Assembly: GCA_002689995.1 (NCBI GenBank)
Contig: NZIV01000063.1
Location: 21,010 to 72,904, forward strand
DNA length: 51,895 bases
Direction of reading: 5' to 3'
Source of the DNA: Fidelibacterota bacterium
GTDB taxonomy: Bacteria; Fidelibacterota; Marinisomatia; SCGC-AAA003-L08; GCA-2689995
The position numbers and the translations under genes are program-made. A model generated the notes under the pieces. That model did not search any database and was not told the DNA's origin. It saw nothing but the letters and a program-made list of their open reading frames with translations. Positions 22,874 through 51,880 of this stretch are shown piece by piece. How positions within the stretch are numbered: position 1 is the stretch's first letter; the number at the start of each line of letters is the position of its first letter.

Positions 22874-24423
22874 TATTTTTTATAAACCAATTCACCATCA
22901 ACAAAAGTCATTAAAATCTCCGTATTTAAAATATCTCTTTCGCTACAAGTCGTTATATCTTGAGATAATATAGTTAGATCAGCATCATATCCTGGCAAAA
23001 TTTTACCTCTTCGATGTTCATCAAATCCACCATATGCAGCCCATGTTGTAAGCATTTTTAATGCTTCTATTCTACTTACTTTTTCTTGTGCCTGCCAACT
23101 TTCAACATTTGGATTATCAGGCGACTTTCGTGTTACTGCAGAAAAAAATTCCAAAATTGGATTTCCTTTTTCAATAGGACAATCAGAACCTCCCGGAATT
23201 TTTAGTCCAGCATTTAAGAAAGATTTCCATCTCGAAATTCTATGAATCCTTTTGTTTCCAATTCTCTGTTCCATCCAACGCATATCACTTGTACAATGTG
23301 AAGGCTGCATTGAAGGTAAAATATCATTTTTAACAAATTGCGGAATCTCTTCATCTCTTACCATTTGAGCATGCTCAACTCTCCATCTTTTATCATTTTT
23401 TCCACAAAGATATTTTTCATATGTATCCAAAACCAGTTTATTACCTTTGTCACCAATTGCATGGGTACAAAGTTGAAATCCATGATTATAACAATTATTC
23501 GCAAGTTTATCAAACTCATCTTTAGATAGTAAAATTAGACCAAAATTTCCACAATCATCATTGTATTCATCAAAAAGACAAGCACCACGACTTCCTAATG
23601 CTCCATCCATAAATGCTTTTACTGCACGAATAGTATAGCGATTATTTTTTAAAATTCCATTTTGGAACCATGGCTTTAGAAACTCTTTGTCGTTTCCATT
23701 TAACATTCCATAGCAGCGAATTGGAAAATTATCTTGTTTTATTAGACTTTGAATAGAGGTAACAATTAATGAATCTTGCCATGCATCATGAATACCAGTA
23801 ATTCCATTAGAGACTGTTTGTTTTATACCTTTTTCAATAAATCGTTTTACATCATTTTCAGTCTGCTTTGGTATATATTTTTCGATAGAATCCATTGCAT
23901 TATCAATAAATATACAATTATTAATAACCTCTCCACCAGCTGTAAAATCTAAACTTTCTTCAAATCCAGAAATTTGTCGTGCTCTTTTATTTACCCAAAT
24001 CGCATGACCATCAATACGTGTCAAAGAAATAGGATGATCAATACTAATATTATCTAAAACCTTTGCCAAAGGAAACTTATTATTTTCCCATAATGACTGA
24101 TCCCAACCTCTACCTAAGATCCAAGTTCCCTTTGGAAAATTTGATAAATTTTTACGAATTAAATTTACTATTTTTTGCGGAGAATCAATTCCTACAAGAT
24201 TAAAATTTTCTAAAAACTTGCCTAAGTTTGAAAGATGATAATGTGCATCAATAAAACCAGGTACAATTGTTGAACCTTTAAGGTCAATAGTTTTTGCAGA
24301 CAATAAATTCTGATTTAAGCCTTCTATTTTTCCATCTTTTATAATTATACTCTCGACTTTAGGCATATCTGGATGCAATGTAATAACATTCGCATTTATT
24401 AATTTTAGAGGTGAAATTTTCAT
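22873..24423 (-). CDS. Amidohydrolase (YtcJ-like, Amidohydro_3)
   Basis: PGFIDAHYH, HAIGD, RVEHAQ and GGSDCP motifs. Confidence 0.92.
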   Translation of the reverse strand: MKISPLKLINANVITLHPDMPKVESIIIKDGKIEGLNQNLLSAKTIDLKGSTIVPGFIDAHYHLSNLGKFLENFNLVGIDSPQKIVNLIRKNLSNFPKGTWILGRGWDQSLWENNKFPLAKVLDNISIDHPISLTRIDGHAIWVNKRARQISGFEESLDFTAGGEVINNCIFIDNAMDSIEKYIPKQTENDVKRFIEKGIKQTVSNGITGIHDAWQDSLIVTSIQSLIKQDNFPIRCYGMLNGNDKEFLKPWFQNGILKNNRYTIRAVKAFMDGALGSRGACLFDEYNDDCGNFGLILLSKDEFDKLANNCYNHGFQLCTHAIGDKGNKLVLDTYEKYLCGKNDKRWRVEHAQMVRDEEIPQFVKNDILPSMQPSHCTSDMRWMEQRIGNKRIHRISRWKSFLNAGLKIPGGSDCPIEKGNPILEFFSAVTRKSPDNPNVESWQAQEKVSRIEALKMLTTWAAYGGFDEHRRGKILPGYDADLTILSQDITTCSERDILNTEILMTFVDGELVYKK

Positions 24424-31462: not shown

Positions 31463-32419
31463 ATGAATTATAGAAAACTTGGAAATTCTGGTTTAAAACT
31501 TAGTGAACTATCATTTGGTTCTTGGGTCACTTTTGGTAATCAAATAGATGTAAATTTAGCATCTGAATTAATTAAAACAGCCTATGATGCAGGAGTTAAT
31601 TTTTTTGATAATGCAGAGGCATATGCAGCTGGAGAGTCAGAAAAGATAATGGGCGATGCTTTAAAAAAACTTAAAATACCTAGAGATACATGGTGTATAT
31701 CTAGTAAAGTATTTTGGGGTGGAAATCTACCCACTCAAATAGGACTAAGTGCCAAGCATATACATGACTGCTGTAATAATGCACTTAAAAGATTAAAAGT
31801 TGAATATTTAGATTTATATTTCTGTCATAGACCAGACCCTGATACACCAATTGAAGAAACTGTTCGAGCTATGAACAACTTGATTAAACAAGGAAAAATT
31901 CTATATTGGGGTACATCTGAATGGTCGGCAAATCAGATTGAAGAAGCATTCAAAATAGCCTCAAATAACTATCTAACACCACCAACCATGGAGCAACCTC
32001 AATATAATTTATTAAATCGTGATAGATTTGAAAATGAATATAAAACTATTTTTGAAAAATATTCAATAGGAACAACTACTTGGTCTCCACTTTGTTCTGG
32101 TATTTTAACTGGAAAGTATAAAAATGGAATCCCAAAAAATGCAAGATTTTCTATCGAATCCTATCAATGGCTTTGGGAAAAATTCAAAGAAGATGGTATA
32201 GAAAATCAATTTACTAAAATTCAAAAGTTTTGTGAAATGGCTAGTAAATTAAATTTAACACCTGCACAACTGGCAATAAAGTGGTGCTTAAATAATTCTA
32301 ACGTAAGCACAGTGATTTTAGGTGCATCAAAGAAATCACAACTAGAAGAAAATCTCAAAATTTATGATTTAAATAGTTCTGATATTGATTTTAGCGAAGT
32401 AGAAATTTGTTTTAATTAG
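31463..32419 (+). CDS. Aldo/keto reductase (Kv-beta-like)
   Basis: MNYRKLGNSGLKLSELSFGSW, FFDNAEAY, DLYFCHRPD and WGTSEW. Confidence 0.93.
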   Translation: MNYRKLGNSGLKLSELSFGSWVTFGNQIDVNLASELIKTAYDAGVNFFDNAEAYAAGESEKIMGDALKKLKIPRDTWCISSKVFWGGNLPTQIGLSAKHIHDCCNNALKRLKVEYLDLYFCHRPDPDTPIEETVRAMNNLIKQGKILYWGTSEWSANQIEEAFKIASNNYLTPPTMEQPQYNLLNRDRFENEYKTIFEKYSIGTTTWSPLCSGILTGKYKNGIPKNARFSIESYQWLWEKFKEDGIENQFTKIQKFCEMASKLNLTPAQLAIKWCLNNSNVSTVILGASKKSQLEENLKIYDLNSSDIDFSEVEICFN

Positions 32420-33425
32420 CCTTTTTAAATTTTTCTAATTGAGTCTGATAATATTCATCTTTCGGATTCAATTCAATTGCACGTTTAATGGTTTTTATAG
32501 CATTTTGAATATCACCAAGCAGCCATTCAACCTCAGCCTGTGTATCTAAAACCATTGGTTTAGAATTATCATCTGCTAATTCGACACCTATCTTTGCTTT
32601 TATCAGAGCATCATCTAAATTTTGTTTTAACTCTGTCATTCTCCAAGCATAACTATTCATAACACTTGAACTTTTAGTAAATTTTTCACTCATTTCAAAT
32701 AAAGTTGAAATTTCTTTGGTTGTATCTTTTTCTACAATATAATATTTTGCTATCATTTGGTATGCAGATATACATAAAGGCGATTCTGAGTAATCCTTAA
32801 TGAAATTTTGTAGACCTGTTATATCGCTATTCTCCCAACCTAATTTTGCCATTGCAAATTTCGCAGATATAATTTCATCCTCCATTTCTTCTGGAGCATT
32901 TTTTAAAAATTGAGTGTAATATTTTTCTGAAATTTCAGACTCACCTCTAGCAGAATATTTTTCACCTAATTTAAAAATTATACTATAATCATTCGGACTT
33001 TCTATTAATTTATTTTCCAACACAGAAATAGTATTTTCACCTTCTAGGATTTCTTTAACCATGGGCAAATATTGATCTGGAGGTGCATAACCTATTATAC
33101 GATCTATTTCATTACCATGATTATCTATAAATACAACTGTAGGAAAAATACGAACTTTATATTGGCTTACAATTTGACTTCCCTCACGTTGTCCAGCATT
33201 AATTTTTATACTATTAAATTTATCAGTGAGAGTTAAAAATGAATTATCTAAAAATGTATCAGCTTCCAGCCGAGCACACCATCCTCAGCTATCGGTATAA
33301 AAGTCTAGCATTATTAACTTGCTGCCTGTAATATTTTTCAAATCTTCTAAACTTCCTTTATACCAAGGATAAGTTGGATTAGTATTACATGCAAAAATAA
33401 ACAAAATAAATATTAGTCTTTTCAA
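32412..33425 (-). CDS. Lipoprotein thioredoxin-fold + TPR protein; predicted selenoprotein (Sec47, UGWC)
   Basis: AGGAG RBS, TTG start, lipobox FIFA-C, then MLDFYTDS-TGA-GWCARLEADTF...FPTVVFID...EIDRIIGY running in frame into the listed 218-aa TPR ORF; 337 aa in total. Confidence 0.88.
33255..33278 (-). promoter_or_regulatory. SECIS-like hairpin
   Basis: TGTG-C-TCGGCT-GGA-AGCTGA-TACA; loop G lies 18 nt after the UGA at 33285-33287; locally GC-rich in an AT-rich genome. Confidence 0.65.
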
Positions 33426-33435
33426 AATTATTCTC

Positions 33436-33972
33436 CTATTTATTATTTGTACTGTGTCCTGCTAATTGAAATCTTGATAGATGTTTGTAATCTGAAATTA
33501 TAGAAAGTGTATTTATTTCAAACTCTTCGTCAGGTATTATCATATCATGAATTTGGCTCTTCTTATCTTTCGTCATCTTTCCTTTAAAATGAATTGTACA
33601 ATGAGCTTTAAATGGATATTCATTATCAAAAAACTTAATACCACAATGTTTAACCTTGTGGTGAATATCATTAATAATTAAATCATCCATAAATTCAAAA
33701 AAATAAATATCTGTTTTGGGGAAAAAATTTATTTTTGAAAATTTTACTTTGAATGGAGCAATTGATTTAACAAGATCTGAAATAATTTCATTTGCTTCAA
33801 AAATATCCTGCTTATCTGAAATATGACCACATCCAGATGAACCCGCAAGCGTAATAACAACTGGTTTCCATGCAATTTTAGTATCTAAGCTTTGTCTAAT
33901 ACGACGAATTTTATCAGATAATTCTTCTGGTATATCTAGACATATAAAAGTAACCTTTTTAAAATTAAGCAT
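33436..33972 (-). CDS. 2H phosphoesterase (2'-5' RNA ligase-like) family protein
   Basis: Second HxT motif FKAHCTI is present; the first motif reads PVVITL. Confidence 0.7.
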   Translation of the reverse strand: MLNFKKVTFICLDIPEELSDKIRRIRQSLDTKIAWKPVVITLAGSSGCGHISDKQDIFEANEIISDLVKSIAPFKVKFSKINFFPKTDIYFFEFMDDLIINDIHHKVKHCGIKFFDNEYPFKAHCTIHFKGKMTKDKKSQIHDMIIPDEEFEINTLSIISDYKHLSRFQLAGHSTNNK

Positions 33973-36947: not shown

Positions 36948-38444
36948 ATGAAATTATTTCTTACAATTTTATTTTTTTCACTTTTAATTCCAGCAAGTTC
37001 TTATAATATGGATTTAAAGTCTATAACTATGTATGAAAATAGTCAGTTTAATTATGGTATTTCAGATGTTTGGGGCTATACTGATGAATATGGAAATGAA
37101 TACGCAATTGTAGGTTATCTAAATGGTACTAAAATTTTAGATGTAAGTACCAACCCTAATAACCCCATTGAAGTAATGGATATTCCAGGACCATCAGATA
37201 ATGATTATTATTTTCATAGAGATTATAAAACATTAAATGATGTTCTATATACAGTATGTGAAATGACGGGTGGTGACATGGGCATGCAGGTTATTGATTT
37301 ATCCCCTCTCCCTGAAAATCTACCAATTCAATACCCTACATATAATGAAATTGGAACCTCACATAACTTGTGGGTTGACCCTAATGGATACGCATATATT
37401 GAACATAGTTACGGCGATGCTATAAATATAGCAGATTTATCAGATCCTCTAAATCCAATGGAAGTTGGAAGTTTTGGAAGTATTGGTCCTAATACACATG
37501 ATATTTTTACTCGTAATGGTATTGCTTATGTTTCAAATGGCTGGAGTGAAGATTTTTTAATATGTGATATAAATGATTTTAATAATATCGAAGTGCTTGC
37601 AACAATTTCTGAAGGTGTTTCAGGCTATGCTCATAATGCATGGCTATCTGAAGATAGTAGCCACTTAATAACTACTGAAGAAACCGAAGATCGTACAGTT
37701 AAAATTTGGAACATTGAAAATTTATCTAATATTTCATTGGTAGGTGAATATCTTGCCGAAAATGGATTAGCACATAATGTTCATGTGAAAGGAAGCCTAG
37801 TTTATATTTCACATTATACTACTGGTATACGTATTATTGATATATTTGATCCAACCTATCCTGTAGAAGTTGCAGGCTGGGATACTTATCCGCAAAATGA
37901 TGGTGATGGTTATTATGGTTGTTGGGGAGCTTTTCCGTACACGGAAAATGGATATATATATGCAAGTGATATGCAAAATGGACTTTATGTATTAAGTTTT
38001 GAACCTATCTATGCTGGCTGGATAATTGGAAATATTTTTGATAATACTGGAAATCCACTACCAGATAATGCTGAAATTTTTTCAAATTTAGATGGAAGAA
38101 AATTTTCTATCCAAGAAAATGGATTATATCACATTGGAATGCCAGCTGGTCTGCACTCATTTGATGTATATTTAGGTAATGTAAACTTAGGAGGATTTAA
38201 TGCTAATTTTATTGAACACAATACTATAAATAATAATATTTATCTGACAGGTGAAATTTTGCAAGGTGACCCATCCGGTGATGGACTTATAAATGTATTA
38301 GATATTCTAATGACAATAAATGTTATTACTGGTCAAAATATGTTTAGTGAAATTGAATTTGTATCTGCTGATTTAAATCAAGATAATAATATTAATATTT
38401 TAGATATTGTACTTATTGTTAACATTATACTTGGAAATAATTAG
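36948..38444 (+). CDS. Secreted choice-of-anchor B / LVIVD-repeat protein with C-terminal dockerin-like domain
   Basis: SDVWGY, HRDYKT, HNLW, HDIF, HNAWLSED, HNVHV and WGAFPY motifs; duplicated dockerin-like Ca-binding repeats. Confidence 0.87.
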   Translation: MKLFLTILFFSLLIPASSYNMDLKSITMYENSQFNYGISDVWGYTDEYGNEYAIVGYLNGTKILDVSTNPNNPIEVMDIPGPSDNDYYFHRDYKTLNDVLYTVCEMTGGDMGMQVIDLSPLPENLPIQYPTYNEIGTSHNLWVDPNGYAYIEHSYGDAINIADLSDPLNPMEVGSFGSIGPNTHDIFTRNGIAYVSNGWSEDFLICDINDFNNIEVLATISEGVSGYAHNAWLSEDSSHLITTEETEDRTVKIWNIENLSNISLVGEYLAENGLAHNVHVKGSLVYISHYTTGIRIIDIFDPTYPVEVAGWDTYPQNDGDGYYGCWGAFPYTENGYIYASDMQNGLYVLSFEPIYAGWIIGNIFDNTGNPLPDNAEIFSNLDGRKFSIQENGLYHIGMPAGLHSFDVYLGNVNLGGFNANFIEHNTINNNIYLTGEILQGDPSGDGLINVLDILMTINVITGQNMFSEIEFVSADLNQDNNINILDIVLIVNIILGNN

Positions 38445-39427: not shown

Positions 39428-40105
39428 ATGAAAAAAATATACTTACATCTGTTTATTTTTATTTTATCTAGTTTCGCTATATCACAATTGGAATATTCTT
39501 TAGAAGATGTTAACACTACTTCTTCAACTTATAATTTAAATGTTTGGTATCCAGAATACTCAGAATTTATTACATTACATTATTTTTCAACGCAAGGTTG
39601 AGCTGGCTGAACAGCTACTTTTGTGCAGTTGCACAATTTTCAAAATGAATTAAGAAATACTGATGGATTTACTAATATCGTCTTTATTGCAGTAGGACAA
39701 ACAAATATTAGTAGTTTTAACGAAAACTTTTGCTCTGATTCAGACCTTCCACTTGTTATGGATCCTTACCCTGAACTTCCTTTGAGAGAAATGTTTAATG
39801 CTGCGCATAAAGAAGTTGTTATTGTAGATTCAGAATCTAATATCCTTGGTAGGATAACTTTAAATGGAAATTTAAATAGCAACGAAAAGGATTATATAAG
39901 AAACATTATTAGTGAAAATTATCCTGGAGATTCTATCATTGGAGATATAAATGGTGATGAGATAATAAATGTTTTAGATGTTATACTTGTAGTTAACATA
40001 GTTTTAGGAGCAATTACTGATTTAGATAGTGCAGATGTAAATCAAGATGGTTTAATCAATGTTCTTGATATAATTAACATTGTTAACATTATAATAAATA
40101 CTTAG
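39428..40105 (+). CDS. Secreted thioredoxin-like (redoxin) protein with dockerin; predicted double selenoprotein (U58-A-G-U61)
   Basis: ATG 39428 and signal peptide, then YSLEDVNTTSST...LHYFSTQG-TGA-GCT-GGC-TGA-TATFVQLHNFQNEL in frame with the listed 160-aa ORF; 225 aa; C-terminal dockerin. Confidence 0.85.
39621..39636 (+). promoter_or_regulatory. SECIS-like hairpin
   Basis: TTGTGC-AGTT-GCACAA. The loop GU lies 18 nt after the second UGA and 27 nt after the first; it resembles the apical stem of the E. coli fdhF SECIS (GUUGCAGGUCUGCAC). Confidence 0.7.
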
Positions 40106-40110
40106 TTTTT

Positions 40111-41175
40111 ATGCGTTTTTTACTTCTAATAATTTTTTTTATATGTATTCCTTTCACTCAAACCCAAGAATGTATAAATATGCCTCTTAATTCGATCATA
40201 AGTACTTATAGCATCGGAGATACTATTAGTATAGATGACCAATTACGACCATATAATGTGTGCTATTCATCTGAAAATAATAGTAATAATACATTTAGGC
40301 TTGCAGATTTTAATGGCAATTTAAATGGAGGCCATTATCGAGTAACTTTAATAAGTATGAATGCATCATGGTGACCGGCATGTTATGGATACATCAGTAT
40401 GATGGATCAAATTCTTGAATTTATAAATATAAACAATCAAATAGAGTTTTTAGTTAGTTTTGATGATGGTACAGGACCTAACTCAACATATACATGCAAT
40501 GAATGGGGTAATTTATATAATGAACTTGGCGAATATGGAAATCAACCAATAATTTTAAATGGTGATGATGACTATAATCAAGATGGAGACCCTGATCATC
40601 ATTTATGGAATTCATTTGCAGGAAATTCTTATTCTGCATACGTAATGTTAGATCATCATATGGTTGTTAGATATTTGTTTGATATTCCAGATTTATATCA
40701 ATTTCAATACAACTACTTAACATCACTCATGAATGCGATGAATGGTTGCACAGAACAATCTGCATGTAATTATAGTCATACTGCTATATACAACGATGGC
40801 ACATGTCAATTTGATCAAGAATGTGATGAAAATTTGAACCCTTGTTCGAACTTTTCATCTCATTTAGATTGTATATCTGAATCAAATTGCTTCTGGATGG
40901 GTGATCATTGTATGGAAGGCTCAAATTGTACAGACCCTATCGCAGAAAACTTCAATCCAATAGCAGAAACAACAGGAATCAATGATAATATAGAGTGTAT
41001 TTACTCTCCTTTTATAGAATTTGGCTGTATTTATCCAAGTGCAGTAAATTTTAATAGTGAAGCTCGTATTGATGATGGAACTTGCCAGTTTAATTATAAT
41101 GATGTGAACGAAGACAATATCGTCGATATTTTAGATATTATTATTATACTTTCTGAAATAATAGAGCTTGAATAA
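40111..41175 (+). CDS. Secreted thioredoxin-like protein with Cys-rich repeats and dockerin-like tail; predicted selenoprotein (Sec88, WUPAC)
   Basis: The listed 87-aa and 258-aa ORFs are in one frame, joined by ISMNASW-TGA-PACYGYISMMDQ. FRLADFNG...VTLISM-x-ASW-U-xx-C is a redoxin active-site context; 354 aa. Confidence 0.88.
40388..40408 (+). promoter_or_regulatory. SECIS-like hairpin
   Basis: GAT-A-CATCA-GTA-TGATG-G-ATC; loop G lies 23 nt after the UGA at 40372-40374. Confidence 0.55.
40744..41085 (+). repeat. Three degenerate GCTDxxAxN(Y/F)...DGxC protein repeats
   Basis: GCTEQSACNYSHTAIYNDGTC, NCTDPIAENFNPIA...C and GCIYPSAVNFNSEARIDDGTC. Confidence 0.7.
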
Positions 41176-42893: not shown

Positions 42894-43712
42894 CTGAAAG
42901 CATATCACAACCTTGTCAAACATGTTTTAGAAACAGGAATTCGTAAAAAAAATCGTACTGGCACAGATACAATTTCTGCATTTGGTACACATTATAAAGT
43001 TGACCTTTCACATGGATACCCTTTACTTACAACTAAGAAGATATTCTTTAAATCTGTTATAAGAGAGTTACTTTGGTATTTATCAGGTGAAACTCATATT
43101 AGAAATCTTAGAAAACATACTAAAATTTGGGATGCATGGACCACTGAAGAAGATAATTGGGAAATTGGTAAAATGTATGGTTATCAATGGGTAAACTGGG
43201 AAAAATATACTAAAGACCCCAAAACCGGACAATTTGATAAAACTTATATAAATCAAATTGATGAGGTAATAAAATTAATTAAAAAAGATCCAAATTCTAG
43301 ACGAATGGTTATTACTGCTTGGAATCCATCTGTTTTAGACGAAATTGCTCTACCTAGTTGTCATGCATTTTTTATTTTTAATGTTTCTGGTGATAAATTA
43401 AATTGTCATTTAACTCAAAGAAGTGGCGATATAGCACTAGGAATTCCATTTAATTTAGCTTGCTATGCAACATTAACACAGATGATTGCTCAGGAGACAG
43501 GTTATAAACTTGGTTGTTTTTCTCATTATATAAATGATGCTCATGTTTATGTTAATCATGTTGAAGGTTTAAAAGAGCAGCTTACTCGAGAGTTCAAGCC
43601 ACTACCAACATTAGAAATTTCAAAAAAGCCATTTTGGGACTTAGATTTTAAAGACTTTGAAATAAAAGATTATAATCCTCACCCTTCGATTAGGTTTGAA
43701 GTTGCTATTTAA
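42894..43712 (+). CDS. thyA: Thymidylate synthase (CTG start; 272 aa)
   Basis: Frame is open from CTG 42894 (KAYHNLVKHVLETG...NRTGT...PLLTTK...ELLWYL) after an AGGAG RBS; LPSCH and QRSGD...PFN motifs. The ORF track shows only the C-terminal 179 aa. Confidence 0.95.
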   Translation: MKAYHNLVKHVLETGIRKKNRTGTDTISAFGTHYKVDLSHGYPLLTTKKIFFKSVIRELLWYLSGETHIRNLRKHTKIWDAWTTEEDNWEIGKMYGYQWVNWEKYTKDPKTGQFDKTYINQIDEVIKLIKKDPNSRRMVITAWNPSVLDEIALPSCHAFFIFNVSGDKLNCHLTQRSGDIALGIPFNLACYATLTQMIAQETGYKLGCFSHYINDAHVYVNHVEGLKEQLTREFKPLPTLEISKKPFWDLDFKDFEIKDYNPHPSIRFEVAI

Positions 43713-46979: not shown

Positions 46980-47065
46980 TTAATTTTTCTTGAATTAATT
47001 AAAAAATATACTATTATAAATATCCAAACAATAATTATTACCGCATAAAACCATTCTTTAAACAT
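46976..47065 (-). CDS. ccmD: Probable heme exporter protein CcmD (29 aa)
   Basis: MFKEWFYAVIIIVWIFIIVYFLINSRKIK: single TM plus basic tail, AGAGG RBS, overlaps the ccmC stop and the acylase start. Confidence 0.65.
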   Translation of the reverse strand: MFKEWFYAVIIIVWIFIIVYFLINSRKIK

Positions 47066-47726
47066 TTAATCCTCTTAATTTTTTTTCTACAAAAATTCTA
47101 AATTTTACCATTGAAAATAAAATCAAACTAAAATTTATTAGTGAAAATTTAAATAACTTTTGAATTAAATCTGAGGATTCAGCAATTGCATTTCTTCCAG
47201 GGTGTGCTTGTGCTTCAGGTGCCCACATATCAACAGCAAAATAAATAAGTGGTACTTCAAAGAATGCAATAATACAAATAATTGCAGCTAGTCTTGCTCC
47301 CTTTTCTAATGTACCAGAAAATTCTCGAACCATAAAATACACAATATAAGTAATAAATATAAGAAGGGTAGTTGTTAATCTTGGTTCCCATGTCCATGGT
47401 TTACCCCATATTGGAGTTGCCCAAATTGGACCAGTTATTAAAACTAATACACAAAAAAGAGTTCCGACTTCTGCAAATACTAATGCATAAATATCAGAAA
47501 AAATATCACGTTTAAATAGAAATTTCAAACTAAATATCATTGCAATAAAATATGCAATAAAGAAGTTCCAAGCTAATGGCACATGATAGTAAAATATTTT
47601 TTGTGCCCACTCTTGATCTACAATCATCGGTGATTTATAAAAAATTAATATCAAATTAATAATTGATATTAACAAGGTAACAATGATTAAAATTAAATTA
47701 AATTTATTATTTAAAAATCTTTTCAG
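47058..47726 (-). CDS. ccmC: Heme exporter / cytochrome c biogenesis protein CcmC
   Basis: YYHVP and the WWD domain WATPIWGKPWTWEPRLT. Start extended to the CTG right after the ccmB stop, with a GGAGG RBS. Confidence 0.9.
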   Translation of the reverse strand: MKRFLNNKFNLILIIVTLLISIINLILIFYKSPMIVDQEWAQKIFYYHVPLAWNFFIAYFIAMIFSLKFLFKRDIFSDIYALVFAEVGTLFCVLVLITGPIWATPIWGKPWTWEPRLTTTLLIFITYIVYFMVREFSGTLEKGARLAAIICIIAFFEVPLIYFAVDMWAPEAQAHPGRNAIAESSDLIQKLFKFSLINFSLILFSMVKFRIFVEKKLRGLNV

Positions 47727-48395
47727 CTATTCCTCCAATGAATAATCAAATAAAAATAATCCCATAATTGTCATTCCAATAGCAAATGATAAAATAATCA
47801 TATACCAGAAACTATAAAACTCAAACTTTAACCCTTTAGCTAGAATTGTAGTTGATTTAACTGCAGAAATAAAAACTGGAGTAGATAATGGAAAAAATAA
47901 TAATATGCTTAAAACATCACTCATTTTAGACCTAAATCCCAATCCTCCTACTAAAACACCCAATGTAGAAATAGCCCAATTAATTAATGTTACAAGTAGC
48001 CAAAATTTCAAATTTTTAATTATAGGAAAATCAAAAAATAGGTGAAATAATGGAAATAAAATTATCTGTGAAATGAGTAAATATAAAATAAATGAAATTG
48101 ATTTTGAGAGGAAAATATAACCTCTATCGATGGGTGAGCTTAATAATAAACTGATAGCATTAAATTCTTTTTCTTTAGAAAAATTCCTATTGATTCCAAT
48201 ATTCAAAGAAAACATAAAAGTAATCCAAGCAAGTCCAGGCAAAAAGAATTGTATAGAATTTGAGGAAGGATTAAATGAAAATGAAAAAATAAGTAGAGTA
48301 GAAATTCCAAATATTACCATAGAAAGCAGTGTGTCTTTTGACTTTAACTCCTGTGAAATTTCTTTTTTCAATAATATAAAAAATAAATTATTCAA
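47727..48395 (-). CDS. ccmB: Heme exporter protein CcmB
   Basis: Six-TM protein with FSKEKE...LLLSSPI...IFLSK and ILLFFPLSTPV motifs; lies between ccmA and ccmC. Confidence 0.88.
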   Translation of the reverse strand: MNNLFFILLKKEISQELKSKDTLLSMVIFGISTLLIFSFSFNPSSNSIQFFLPGLAWITFMFSLNIGINRNFSKEKEFNAISLLLSSPIDRGYIFLSKSISFILYLLISQIILFPLFHLFFDFPIIKNLKFWLLVTLINWAISTLGVLVGGLGFRSKMSDVLSILLFFPLSTPVFISAVKSTTILAKGLKFEFYSFWYMIILSFAIGMTIMGLFLFDYSLEE

Positions 48396-48400
48396 TCTAA

Positions 48401-49036
48401 TTAAAATTGTTCTAATTTACCAAAAGATAGATTATAAACAGTATCACAGTATTTGGTTAGGAAATTATTATTATGAGAGGAAATTATTATTGTTTTTTCA
48501 TCCTTATATTTAACAAGACAATCTTCTAGTATAGCTAATCCTTTTTTATCTAAAGCATTTGTCGGTTCATCTAAAATTAAAATTTCCCAATTACTTAATT
48601 TCATTCTTGCTATGTGATAACGCTGAATCATACCTGCACTGAATTCTATCAATGATTGATGGATTGAAACTTCTAAACCAACATTTTTCAAAGCATATTT
48701 TATTAACTCATCATCTATAAATTCCGATCTTAATTGAAGAAATAATTTAAGATTTTCAAGTGGAGTTAAATATGAATAGCAGTCTTGACTGTGCCCCCAA
48801 TAAAATATTTTTTTTAGGTAATCATAATTTGAAGAAAATAAAACATCTTCAGATATGCTTCCACTTCCATGATCTGGCTTCATTATTCCAGATATTATTT
48901 TTAATAATGTGGTTTTACCTGATCCATTTTCTCCAGTAATTCCAATGGTCGACTTTGATTGAACTTCTAAATTTAAATTATTTATTACAGGCTTAAGATT
49001 AAATGATTTAGTTAAATTTTTTATTGATAGGTTCAT
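48401..49036 (-). CDS. ccmA: Heme ABC exporter ATPase CcmA
   Basis: GENGSGKTT, FSAGM signature and ILILDEP. Confidence 0.9.
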   Translation of the reverse strand: MNLSIKNLTKSFNLKPVINNLNLEVQSKSTIGITGENGSGKTTLLKIISGIMKPDHGSGSISEDVLFSSNYDYLKKIFYWGHSQDCYSYLTPLENLKLFLQLRSEFIDDELIKYALKNVGLEVSIHQSLIEFSAGMIQRYHIARMKLSNWEILILDEPTNALDKKGLAILEDCLVKYKDEKTIIISSHNNNFLTKYCDTVYNLSFGKLEQF

Positions 49037-49066
49037 AAATAATTATAGGATAGAAATGATACTGAA

Positions 49067-49396
49067 TCAAAACCAGAACTTATCATTTTCTTCTAAATTT
49101 ATCTTACTATTTTTGCTATCTTGTGAGAATTCATCTTCTTTATTTTCAAGGAGTATTGATGCTTCTAATTTTAACTCTTTATTTGTCCTATTAAAATCTT
49201 CCTCTGAAATAATACCCATATCATATTCATATTCTGTTTCTCGAATTTGTTTAAAAATATTGACTAATCGTCTTTTATTTGATAAATCTTTTAAATCATT
49301 TCCTTCTTCATAAATTTCAATATTTTTTGATAATAAAGGTTTAATAGTAAAATATATCACAATTATAAAAATTACAAAAAGTAAAGCAGGTATCAT
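49067..49396 (-). CDS. Small CcmI-like membrane-anchored protein
   Basis: N-terminal TM ending KPL, and IRETEYEYDMGIISEEDF resembling the CcmI N-terminal motif. Confidence 0.6.
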   Translation of the reverse strand: MIPALLFVIFIIVIYFTIKPLLSKNIEIYEEGNDLKDLSNKRRLVNIFKQIRETEYEYDMGIISEEDFNRTNKELKLEASILLENKEDEFSQDSKNSKINLEENDKFWF

Positions 49397-49914
49397 TATA
49401 TCCCCATTTTTCTCATTGCTTCATCTACCGATTTAATTTTTGATTGATCAATATTTTGTTTATTTTCCGTAACATTATTTTGAAACTGATGAACAATTAT
49501 AAACCCAATTAATAAACTAAAAATTAAAAGAAAAGTAGGTAATTTCCAAGTTAACCATCCTAAGCCTTTATTTTCCGGTAGTGCTCTCATTCTCTCTCCA
49601 TGAATCCCAATGAAAAAGTTAATAATTTCATCATCCGTCATATTTTTTTTTATTATATTTTTAGAATATTCCAAAATATTTTTATTGTTATATGTAAGTG
49701 TTAGAGAATTATTAAACGTTTCTATATTAAATTCATCTTGAATTAGGTTATTAATTAAAACTTTAATCATTTCTGCTAACTGAGAATCATGTTCAGCAAT
49801 CACACCTCCCCAGCAACAAGGAGCATGTAATTGCTGTTCAATTCCATACTGTCTTTCTGACTTAAACTCTGCAGAAAATAATACAGTTAACACAAATAAA
49901 TAAAATTTATTCAT
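49396..49914 (-). CDS. ccmH: Cytochrome c biogenesis protein CcmH/CycL (vicinal-Cys variant)
   Basis: LHAPCCWGG in place of LRCxxC, TDDEIINFF...HGER...P and a C-terminal TM; follows ccmF. Confidence 0.8.
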   Translation of the reverse strand: MNKFYLFVLTVLFSAEFKSERQYGIEQQLHAPCCWGGVIAEHDSQLAEMIKVLINNLIQDEFNIETFNNSLTLTYNNKNILEYSKNIIKKNMTDDEIINFFIGIHGERMRALPENKGLGWLTWKLPTFLLIFSLLIGFIIVHQFQNNVTENKQNIDQSKIKSVDEAMRKMGI

Positions 49915-51880
49915 TTATTTTTCTTGATGGAATTAATGCAACAAGCGTACCTAATATTAATACAAGTGTTCCTAGCCAAACCCAAGAAACTAAATTATTA
50001 ATTCTAATTTTCAAAGTTGCTAAACCAGTCTCTAAATCCATGCTTCCAAGGATTAAATATAAATCCTTATTTAAGGTTGTTTTAAGAGCAACCTCAGAGT
50101 GCGGCTGACTATCTTGATCTATATAAATTCGTTTCTCAGGAAATAATGATGTGTAAAACAATCCACTTTTTTTGATTTGAATTTCGACAATATATGCATG
50201 ATGATTTTGTCGAGTATTTGGATTAGTCTCTGGTGTTTCTTTCCAATAATTTTTCAATTCAAAAGAATACTCATTTATTTCTGTGATAGGATTTTCGGGT
50301 GTTAAAGAAACATCTGCTTCCTTGTCATAAGCTTTTCCAATAAATCCAAAAAACATCATTAATATTCCAATATGAACTATATAACCACCATATCTGGATT
50401 TGTTTCTTATTATAATTTCAAAAAATGCAATATGAACGGGTTCATTTGCAGTGCGCATTCTCGATCGAGTACCACGATAAAATTCAAGAATTATTGTTGA
50501 AAATACAAATGCAATTAATATTAAAGTAATTAAAGGATAAATTTTAGTAATTCCTAAACTAAAGGAAGTAATGCCAATTAAAATACTTAAAACAACAGGC
50601 AATAGAAAGTTCTTTTTAATACTGTTTATCGACGTTTTACGCCATGCTAATAAAGGAGCAATACCACCTAAAGCTAGCAATACTAGCCCAAAAGGAATTA
50701 TTTTTTGATTAAACCATGTTGGCCCTAGTTTTATTTGAACCCCTCTTAATGCTTCTGTCATCACTGGATATAATGTTCCCCAAAGTACAACAAGCATCAT
50801 TGCTACAAAAATCATATTATTAAATACAAAACCAGCTTCCCTACTAGCAAAGGAATCTAATTGGTTTTGAGAATTCAAATCTTTATGTCGATAAATAAGT
50901 AAGGCAATATTTAACACAACTAAGAAAACTACAAATCCAAAAAACCATATACTTAAATCTGTCGCTGCGAATGCATGAACAGATGATACAATACCACTTC
51001 TTGTTAAATATGTTCCAAAAATAGTTAAAGTGAAAGTTACCATTATAAGAATCATGTTCCAACGGACTAACATCTTTTTCTTTTCCTGAATCATTACGGA
51101 ATGAATAAATGCAGTTCCGGTCAACCATGGAAATAAAGAGGCATTTTCGACAGGATCCCAGGCCCAGTACCCACCCCAACCAAGTTCCATATAAGCCCAC
51201 TTTCCACCCATAACTATTGCTACACTTAAAAGTAACCATGTAAATAAAGACCACCTTCTTGTTAAACGAATCCAAGAGGCATCTAACTGCTGAGTTGCCA
51301 TTGCGGCAACAGCATAGGCATAAGGAATTGTAAATCCAATGAAACCTAAATATAGCATCGGTGGATGTAATAACATAGCCCAATGCTGTAATAATGGATT
51401 TAATCCAGAACCCATTTTAATTGGGCCTTCTACTGGAGTAAATGGATTTTCAAAAGCAAGGCAAATAAATAAAAAGAAGATTAAAACTATTGAAATTACC
51501 ATTGTAACCCACGGCATTAAAGTAATGAATTTTCTTCTGTTTTGATATAAAACAATTAATGTATAAATCGCTAAGATGAAAGTCCAGAAAAGTAATGATC
51601 CTTCCATTCCTGCCCAAAATCCACTAATTTTATAAATAGTTGGAGTATAGATACTACTATACTTATTTACATAAGTTAAACTTAGCTCACTGTTAAATAA
51701 AGCATATATTAAAGTAAACCCTGAAGCTATAATTAGAATACAGGATGAAATCATTGCATTTCTTCCTACATTAAAAAGCCTAAGATCTTTAGATTTTAAA
51801 TACCATAAATTAAATACAAAACTAGTGATTGCAAGAAATAAGGCAAGTGAAATTAAAGATGATCCGAAGAGTGAAATCAT
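49907..51880 (-). CDS. ccmF: Heme lyase CcmF
   Basis: WAGMEGSLLFW, LNPLLQH...HPP, WAYMELGWGGYWAWDPVENAS and TRSGIVSSVHAF. Confidence 0.97.
   Translation of the reverse strand: MISLFGSSLISLALFLAITSFVFNLWYLKSKDLRLFNVGRNAMISSCILIIASGFTLIYALFNSELSLTYVNKYSSIYTPTIYKISGFWAGMEGSLLFWTFILAIYTLIVLYQNRRKFITLMPWVTMVISIVLIFFLFICLAFENPFTPVEGPIKMGSGLNPLLQHWAMLLHPPMLYLGFIGFTIPYAYAVAAMATQQLDASWIRLTRRWSLFTWLLLSVAIVMGGKWAYMELGWGGYWAWDPVENASLFPWLTGTAFIHSVMIQEKKKMLVRWNMILIMVTFTLTIFGTYLTRSGIVSSVHAFAATDLSIWFFGFVVFLVVLNIALLIYRHKDLNSQNQLDSFASREAGFVFNNMIFVAMMLVVLWGTLYPVMTEALRGVQIKLGPTWFNQKIIPFGLVLLALGGIAPLLAWRKTSINSIKKNFLLPVVLSILIGITSFSLGITKIYPLITLILIAFVFSTIILEFYRGTRSRMRTANEPVHIAFFEIIIRNKSRYGGYIVHIGILMMFFGFIGKAYDKEADVSLTPENPITEINEYSFELKNYWKETPETNPNTRQNHHAYIVEIQIKKSGLFYTSLFPEKRIYIDQDSQPHSEVALKTTLNKDLYLILGSMDLETGLATLKIRINNLVSWVWLGTLVLILGTLVALIPSRKINE

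Follow-up and report, generated by a model that had tools for sequence, protein, structure and literature searches.

A gene on the minus strand of the window (32412..33425) almost certainly encodes a selenoprotein in which UGA codon 47 is read as selenocysteine (Sec), judging from its sequence and those of its relatives. The window is the whole 51,895-nucleotide stretch that was analyzed, taken from contig NZIV01000063.1 (positions 21,010 to 72,904) of the Fidelibacterota bacterium assembly GCA_002689995.1. The predicted product joins a lipoprotein-type signal peptide, a thioredoxin (Trx) domain with the active site UGWC and a tetratricopeptide repeat (TPR) domain, and its N-terminal part is encoded in what appears to be an intergenic gap. 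An initial annotation of the DNA had proposed a missed selenoprotein gene at this place. A conserved TGA, cysteine counterparts, a selenocysteine insertion sequence (SECIS) hairpin and Sec machinery have all been found.

Structure of the gene

With TGA taken as Sec, 33425..32412 of the minus strand is a single open frame of 337 codons plus TAA. The coordinates given in the initial annotation are correct, and the gene strand is minus. Standard calling of open reading frames (ORFs) finds only a 46-codon stub and a 218-codon TPR ORF, and for this reason a "gap" of 367 bp appears at 33069-33435. Past TGA47, the frame is open through the 218-aa TPR ORF as far as the TAA at 32414-32412. The ribosome-binding site, TTG start, lipobox, motif MLDFYTDS-U-GWCARLEADTF, FPT and in-frame TPR ORF that had been read from the gap are all present on the minus strand. 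Between an upstream in-frame TAG and the TTG start there are 12 in-frame codons, none of which is ATG, GTG or TTG, and the orthologues begin at the same position with GTG or M. Only ~10 nt separate the Trx-TPR gene from the end of the gene upstream, a 2'-5' RNA ligase-like ORF. Full-length homologues are 58-63% identical and the Cys forms ~34-36%, and both cover residues 1-337. The features of the gene are as follows.

32412..33425, minus strand: whole coding sequence, 337 codons plus TAA, TGA47 as selenocysteine; homologues span residues 1-337
33432..33437, minus strand: Shine-Dalgarno-like AGGAGA, 6 nt upstream of the start, read directly from the sequence
33423..33425, minus strand: TTG start codon, the first ATG/GTG/TTG downstream of the in-frame TAG
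33387..33425, minus strand: predicted signal peptide and lipobox (residues 1-13, FIFAC, Cys13), matched by 30/47 homologue N-termini under the lipobox rule
33285..33287, minus strand: UGA codon 47, selenocysteine, first residue of UGWC; TGA in 67/87 loci, Cys in 20/87
33276..33278, minus strand: Cys50, resolving cysteine of UxxC, an invariant column of the 51-protein alignment
33254..33279, minus strand: SECIS hairpin in codons 49-58 of the coding sequence, beginning 6 nt past the UGA, with (U)GGA(A) as apical loop
33063..33323, minus strand: thioredoxin-fold domain, residues 35-121, DsbD-gamma/DsbH type
33141..33143, minus strand: cis-proline Pro95 (FPT), an invariant column, just preceding model strand 96-100
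32415..33029, minus strand: all-helical TPR domain, residues ~133-337

Codon 47 as a selenocysteine codon

A set of 301 genomes of the phylum was searched with the read-through protein, and 149 of them gave a match at E <= 1e-10. Most full-length matches carried exactly one internal TGA. Eighty-seven loci, one per genome and including that of the window, were examined (30 best matches, 17 without a stop and 40 more with TGA). At the codon 47 column, TGA is present in 67 of these loci and TGT or TGC in the other 20, placing the Cys homologues that the initial annotation called for in the same column as the proposed Sec. The most distant Sec forms are ~25% identical to the query on both sides of the TGA and retain the flanks F-Y-T-D-x-U-x-x-C.

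Protein databases record the same position unevenly. The codon-47 column of a 51-protein alignment contains 44 C, 6 W and 1 S, where three of the 44 C rows (the query, P0057 and P0058) stand for a TGA that was entered as C, and the six W entries are probably TGA rendered as Trp by the gene caller. As aligned, P0057 and P0058 each end in one spurious residue, their terminal TGA having been translated. Public entries include full-length Cys forms of 340 aa that read DFYTDWCAPC, together with many proteins of 215-285 aa that start just past the TGA; the window's own entry (P0004) has 216 aa. A locus search with the single protein returned only two same-genus records (the contigs of L026 and L027). 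TGA terminates 7 of the 39 ORFs of the window, and the orthologous gene itself ends with TGA in two same-genus records (L022 and L023). TGA therefore still serves as an ordinary stop, which excludes a reassigned genetic code. A quick tree was built from 47 rows (the 30 top matches and the 17 without a stop, a selection whose Sec:Cys ratio is no population estimate). It needs at least three Sec/Cys changes, two of which are forced by well-supported branches.

If there were no recoding, the TGA would be a genuine stop, an error of sequencing or a lesion in a pseudogene, and the TPR ORF of 218 aa (33068..32412) would be the sole product. Public gene calls do stop or restart near the TGA, with proteins of the shorter lengths on record, and selB is frameshifted in this assembly. 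We consider this explanation extremely improbable, however, given that the identical TGA occurs in 67 genomes with the protein sequence conserved on either side, and that the remaining homologues carry Cys at the same column. Residues 48-121, which span the interval from the TGA to the start of the called ORF, make up the conserved Trx core with the invariant Cys50 and Pro95. The hairpin described below is retained where the codon is TGA and lost in 18 of 20 Cys forms, and same-genus genomes with the same TGA have an intact selB.

Two hairpin registers at one selenocysteine site

In bacterial SECIS elements of the fdhF type, a SelB-dependent hairpin lies directly 3' of the UGA. The hairpin of the window, GUGUG-C-UCGGCU[GGA]AGCUGA-UACAU, starts 6 nt after the UGA and has its first loop G 18 nt past the A of the UGA. 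The offset of 18 nt claimed in the initial annotation was thus confirmed for the Trx-TPR gene, and it also holds for the hairpin after the second TGA (39608) of the neighboring UxxU gene.

Comparison between relatives shows that this first register accompanies the TGA. All 53 Sec forms of the register have four apical pairs (CGGC/GCCG) with the loop UGGA(U/A/C), and the apical stem is found in only 2 of 20 Cys forms, though most of the latter encode R-L-D-A as well. In a stretch of fixed length (34 nt), the minimum free energy averaged -9.8 kcal/mol in 27 Sec forms and -4.4 in the 20 Cys forms (Mann-Whitney p 1e-6, a value that overstates the evidence because the rows are relatives). Across 48 rows, 86.7% of cells pair, compared with 20-48% after a shift of the partner by 1-3 columns, and 5 of 10 pairs vary on both sides. 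Pair 17-27, for example, is GC in 39 rows, GU in 4, UA in 3 and AU in 2, and pair 18-26 is GC in 44, AU in 3 and GU in 1. The stem is made of CGG and CTG codons, which account for 2.4% of Arg codons and 1.7% of Leu codons in the window, whose G+C content is 28.6%.

Fourteen distant Sec forms (L102-L115) have a different hairpin 6 nt further 3', (U/A)(G/A)ACC-AGUU-GGU(C/U)(U/C), with its loop G 24 nt after the UGA. Two pairs of this second register covary (22-33, GC 9 and AU 5; 21-34, AU 8, GC 3 and GU 3). The family resembles the fdhF type in having a small in-coding hairpin a few nt after the UGA with a G in the apical loop (18 or 24 nt past it), but differs in having two non-homologous registers at one Sec site. 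In two of the Cys forms (L057 and L064) the full first-register hairpin persists; from their sequences, these fossil hairpins look like the trace of a recent change from Sec to Cys.

Selenocysteine machinery

The genome assembly (2.9 Mb in 87 contigs, estimated contamination 7.3%) contains selA (501 bits), selB directly after it in two frames (184 and 181 bits), selD (375 bits; contig C68:74966-75889) and a tRNA-Sec (65 bits). The Sec machinery on which the initial annotation had made its proposal depend is thus present. The selD gene carries one in-frame TGA, and by its sequence the selenophosphate synthetase of this genome is itself a selenoprotein. Both same-genus genomes with the same TGA in the Trx-TPR gene have an intact 624-codon selB (373-377 bits).

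Export signal, domains and predicted fold

The N-terminus, KRLIFILFIFAC, forms a short signal peptide that ends in a lipobox at Cys13. FIFAC/Cys13 fits the lipobox rule that was used, a PROSITE-style pattern, as do the N-termini of 30 of 47 homologues. When these 47 N-termini were read by eye, 41 had a Cys after a hydrophobic run, 5 were signal peptidase I-like and 1 was cut by a contig end. The lipoprotein-type N-terminus proposed in the initial annotation therefore has support across the homologues. On this basis the product is very probably exported, and in most relatives it is predicted to be lipid-anchored at the conserved cysteine.

The best family for residues 35-121 is Thioredoxin_2 (PF13098; 5.9e-12, with 46.3 bits where the cut-off is 27), and there are matches to Thioredoxin and Thioredoxin_7 as well; the read-through sequence thus gives the thioredoxin-family match that had been anticipated for it. 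The TPR domain was likewise upheld, by matches of residues 292-328 to TPR models. In the active site, S-U47-G-W-C50, Cys50 is one of only two invariant columns of the 51-protein alignment, the other being Pro95. An AlphaFold model built with 51 sequences (predicted local distance difference test 95.7; predicted template modeling score 0.87) shows a thioredoxin fold to residue 127, followed by 13 helices. The domain is thus identified as thioredoxin-like by its score above the cut-off of a family HMM (hidden Markov model), by the UxxC motif where helix 1 starts, by the loop with the cis-Pro and by the overall fold. The part beyond it resembles generic TPR proteins.

The catalytic domain belongs with DsbD-gamma and DsbH and not with the Redoxin type. 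Its closest structures and sequences are domains of reductive pathways, namely DsbD-gamma, DsbH and 3f9u (a DsbD-like C-terminal domain), and the best match by sequence in the Protein Data Bank (PDB) is 2kuc (8.6e-9). A search of NCBIfam gave no model at its cut-off, and no model there covers the family; the best match was the TsoB C-terminal domain, at 55 bits against a cut-off of 805, with the DsbD C-terminal domain likewise far below its own. The gene shares its type of catalytic domain with the DsbD gamma domain (1vrs_D, 2fwg) and Chlamydia DsbH (2ju5). The Trx-TPR protein differs from DsbD gamma in standing alone rather than being part of a three-domain DsbD, and from both in having Sec for the first Cys, a 200-residue TPR extension and a lipid anchor.

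Relation to catalogued selenoproteins

Table 1 of a 2026 review (PMC13188914) lists UxxC "thiol:disulfide interchange protein" selenoproteins of the PF13098/cd02953 type, credited to Kryukov and Gladyshev 2004. The Global Ocean Sampling (GOS) selenoproteome includes a "Trx-like 2" group, with 22 Sec sequences and 2,098 Cys homologues (PMC2398784). The present gene is like these in having PF13098 as the best match, Sec as the first residue of UxxC and a marine metagenomic setting. It differs in its TPR fusion and lipoprotein signal, which are not described for them. By its sequence, the gene appears to fit the already catalogued Trx-like 2 UxxC selenoproteins and would be a known type that is routinely cut short by annotation. 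The words TPR and tetratricopeptide have no occurrence in the searched text of PMC13188914, PMC2398784 and the Sargasso Sea paper (PMC1088965), nor is there an NCBIfam model, and we therefore regard the fused Trx-TPR architecture as undescribed in the literature searched.

Proposed mechanism

We propose that the product is an envelope-anchored selenoprotein reductase that acts on clients held by its TPR domain and is recharged by DsbD; taken as a whole, this explanation seems to us somewhat more probable than its alternatives combined. SelB with Sec-tRNA(Sec) would recognize the in-coding hairpin that starts 6 nt past the UGA, so that UGA47 is read as Sec. The selenolate of Sec47 would then attack an envelope protein, held in place by the TPR domain, at a disulfide or an oxidized cysteine. 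A mixed selenenylsulfide would form and be resolved by Cys50, and the oxidized U-C pair would be re-reduced by the DsbD of the genome. For the central step, reduction coupled to the holding of clients, we put the chances at about even.

The protein is read as a membrane-tethered periplasmic reductase because its domain belongs to the DsbD-gamma/DsbH branch and because a three-domain DsbD (622 aa), a possible electron donor, is encoded in the genome. DsbH has been described as a reducing periplasmic oxidoreductase (PMC5193440). The long, fully conserved TPR domain suggests, by analogy with CnoX, that clients may be held beside the active site; the client binding proposed in the initial annotation is plausible. 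Gene neighbors were scanned at 22 loci (67 flanking ORFs, with pieces of the gene itself excluded and 5 near-duplicate loci dropped). A double-FKBP prolyl isomerase with its own lipoprotein signal lies directly upstream on the same strand at 4 of the 22 relatives' loci and nearby at 2 more, and this neighbor lends slight contextual support to the proposal.

Several observations weigh against this account or parts of it. The 87 loci were picked by match rank and stop column, and they come from relatives within one phylum and are not independent. When the 76-nt stretch containing the hairpin of the window is folded alone, z is -0.7, and 46 of 200 shuffled sequences reach a fold that is as good or better; because the folding energy by itself is unremarkable, the support from the hairpin is drawn from comparison with relatives. 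The break in selB is an apparent frameshift in an A/T-rich run (contig C63 ~23274-23289; L004 1486-1520), which is likely an assembly error since the same-genus genomes have the gene intact. The x-x dipeptide of UxxC varies across loci (GW, SW, GG, PA, VW and others), and the redox potential is therefore unreadable from the sequence. Gene neighborhood is not conserved between families, and outside the genus the commonest neighbor, at 9 of 22 loci, is an M3 peptidase, to which no functional weight was given because it is without a signal peptide. The top Foldseek match, Escherichia coli YbbN/CnoX (3qou), aligns over 319 columns and is the sole solved protein aligned over both domains, but the geometry of the alignment is poor (template modeling scores 0.27/0.31, root-mean-square deviation 21 A), and no YbbN chain was found in the PDB sequence search at E <= 0.01.

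The resemblance to CnoX is one of architecture. CnoX/YbbN (3qou, 3qdn) likewise has an N-terminal Trx domain and a C-terminal TPR domain. It is, however, a cytoplasmic protein that works with GroEL, whereas the Trx-TPR protein has an export signal and a lipobox, and the arrangement of the two domains differs, as the alignment geometry given above shows. YbbN 3qou is not among the 50 matches listed in the VIA list, and there is no TPR_20-type Pfam match. In CnoX, the TPR domain holds unfolded clients and the Trx domain forms mixed disulfides with them (PMC8129009). A more specific form of our proposal, which we advance only tentatively and think rather unlikely, is that the protein is a periplasmic, lipid-anchored selenium counterpart of CnoX, in which envelope proteins, unfolded or damaged by oxidation, would be held by the TPR solenoid while Sec47 forms and resolves mixed selenenylsulfides with their cysteines.

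The chemistry could also run in the oxidizing or isomerizing direction, as in DsbA or DsbC, with the selenenylsulfide as a resting state that is donated to, or shuffled among, client cysteines. The envelope is a normally oxidizing location, UxxC DsbA-like and DsbG-like forms are listed among the predicted selenoproteins in Table 1 of PMC13188914, and the FKBP folding-catalyst neighbor is compatible with either direction. The nearest structures and sequences nevertheless belong to the reductive pathway, as set out above. The model is without the helical insertion of DsbA-type proteins, its Trx domain ending at residue 127 and passing straight into TPR helices, and no dimerization domain of the DsbC/DsbG type is present. 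This direction is therefore judged unlikely.

Slightly less likely still is a selenium-based scavenger or repair enzyme that would act on sulfenic acids or peroxides, of envelope proteins or of small molecules, with the TPR domain as a scaffold or anchor only. Sec resists irreversible over-oxidation, and two further exported candidate selenoproteins in the window (39428-40105 and 40111-41175) suggest broad extracytoplasmic use of Sec. Family searches, however, gave only generic Trx families and no peroxiredoxin or GPx-type signature, and the TPR domain stays conserved over its full length even at 25% identity, an argument for a specific role in binding.

Cytochrome c maturation

The initial annotation had offered a CcmG/DsbC-like activity for the protein, on the ground that no ccmG lies in the visible part of the ccm cluster. 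The latter point was confirmed, and the cluster was extended to ccmE, which lies just beyond the window end.

47058-51880 of the window, minus strand, plus L116:87-503, minus strand: System I cluster of ccmE, ccmF, ccmH, a 109-aa ORF, ccmA, ccmB and ccmC

From ccmE to ccmC, the cluster contains no ccmG, ccmD, ccmI-type or TPR gene, and its 109-aa ORF (49067-49396) has no Pfam match. Beyond ccmE lies a divergently transcribed EamA transporter gene.

CcmG/DsbE, ResA and TlpA are thiol reductases that are exported, tethered to the membrane and kept reduced by DsbD or CcdA, and in System I a separate TPR protein, CcmI, presents the apocytochrome. The Trx-TPR protein could accordingly be imagined as the missing CcmG of System I, perhaps with CcmI-like TPRs, reducing the CxxCH cysteines of apocytochromes presented on its TPR domain. 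The cluster is without a ccmG or TPR gene, the protein is exported, thiol reductase-like and equipped with a peptide-binding domain, and there is a faint match to TPR_CcmH_CycH (E 0.029; 14.7 bits against a cut-off of 42). This role is nonetheless quite improbable. In the 301 genomes searched, the occurrence of the gene is uncoupled from that of CcmF and System I: the gene and CcmF are found, respectively, in 14/14 and 0/14 genomes of family f2, 5/5 and 0/5 of f17, 0/30 and 29/30 of f7, and 8/42 and 41/42 of f10. The protein has no match to TIGR00385 (DsbE/CcmG) at E <= 0.1, and it is not of the Redoxin/AhpC-TSA type to which CcmG/DsbE, ResA and TlpA belong. The gene lies ~14 kb away from the ccm cluster, in a separate transcription unit.

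A search of the genome for ccmG and dsbD found the three-domain dsbD; as for ccmG, a TlpA/CcmG-like protein adjoins dsbD and falls below the DsbE cut-off. This AhpC/TSA-Redoxin protein of 190 aa, encoded directly downstream of dsbD (contig C2; L075 235-2679, minus), scores 57 bits with TIGR00385, whose cut-off is 123, and appears from its sequence to be the more conventional CcmG candidate. The CcmG/DsbC-like role was thus not borne out, there being no DsbE match, a domain that is not Redoxin-type, uncoupling from CcmF and a TlpA/CcmG-like candidate elsewhere. A cyclophilin-type prolyl isomerase is encoded upstream of dsbD on contig C2.

Gene neighbors and other loci of the window

Upstream of the Trx-TPR gene, NUDIX, DHQase-like and LigT-like genes recur solely within the genus. 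A conserved operon was considered and rejected, as these upstream genes are common to the genus only and the neighbors differ elsewhere. At loci of family f2, fusions of endonuclease I with dockerin adjoin the gene. Dockerin type I domains occur on several secreted proteins, both in the window (36948-38444 and 39428-40105) and at other loci (L034, L036, L037, L041 and L042).

Two further candidate selenoproteins are encoded on the plus strand. The first, a candidate exported double selenoprotein of 225 codons (39428-40105), has TGA at 39599 and 39608 in the motif Q-G-U-A-G-U-T, a signal peptide and a C-terminal dockerin domain (PF00404, 2.4e-6). After its second UGA there is a hairpin, UUGUGC[AGUU]GCACAA, with the loop G 18 nt past that UGA. 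Directly downstream is a candidate exported selenoprotein of 354 codons (40111-41175) with TGA at 40372 in the motif A-S-W-U-P-A-C; its read-through product matches no Pfam family at E <= 0.001 and is cysteine-rich in the C-terminal half. A thymidylate synthase ORF (43173-43712, plus strand) has only 179 codons and covers only positions 93-266 of PF00303. It is not extended by TGA read-through, and its N-terminal third is missing or in another frame (a frameshift or an assembly error).

Significance

The known principles of Sec decoding are unchanged by this finding. To the catalogued UxxC selenoproteins it adds the use of two SECIS registers at a single Sec site, the survival of fossil hairpins in two Cys forms, uncoupling from System I and the architectural parallel with CnoX. 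SECIS predictors could usefully be trained on the two registers and the fossil hairpins. With Sec at its attacking position, an exported Trx-TPR protein offers a test case for the benefit of selenium to a thiol oxidoreductase in an oxidizing envelope, and also for CnoX-like holding combined with redox chemistry outside the cytoplasm. If the protein were indeed a counterpart of CnoX, the ocean-abundant Marinimicrobia would have a redox holdase for an ATP-free compartment, and the switches between Sec and Cys and between the two hairpins would record repeated tuning of its activity. In most Marinimicrobia genomes, public gene calls reduce the protein to a "TPR protein" or a "hypothetical protein". 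These truncated calls hide a conserved selenoprotein of an abundant ocean phylum, whose dependence on selenium is understated as a result.

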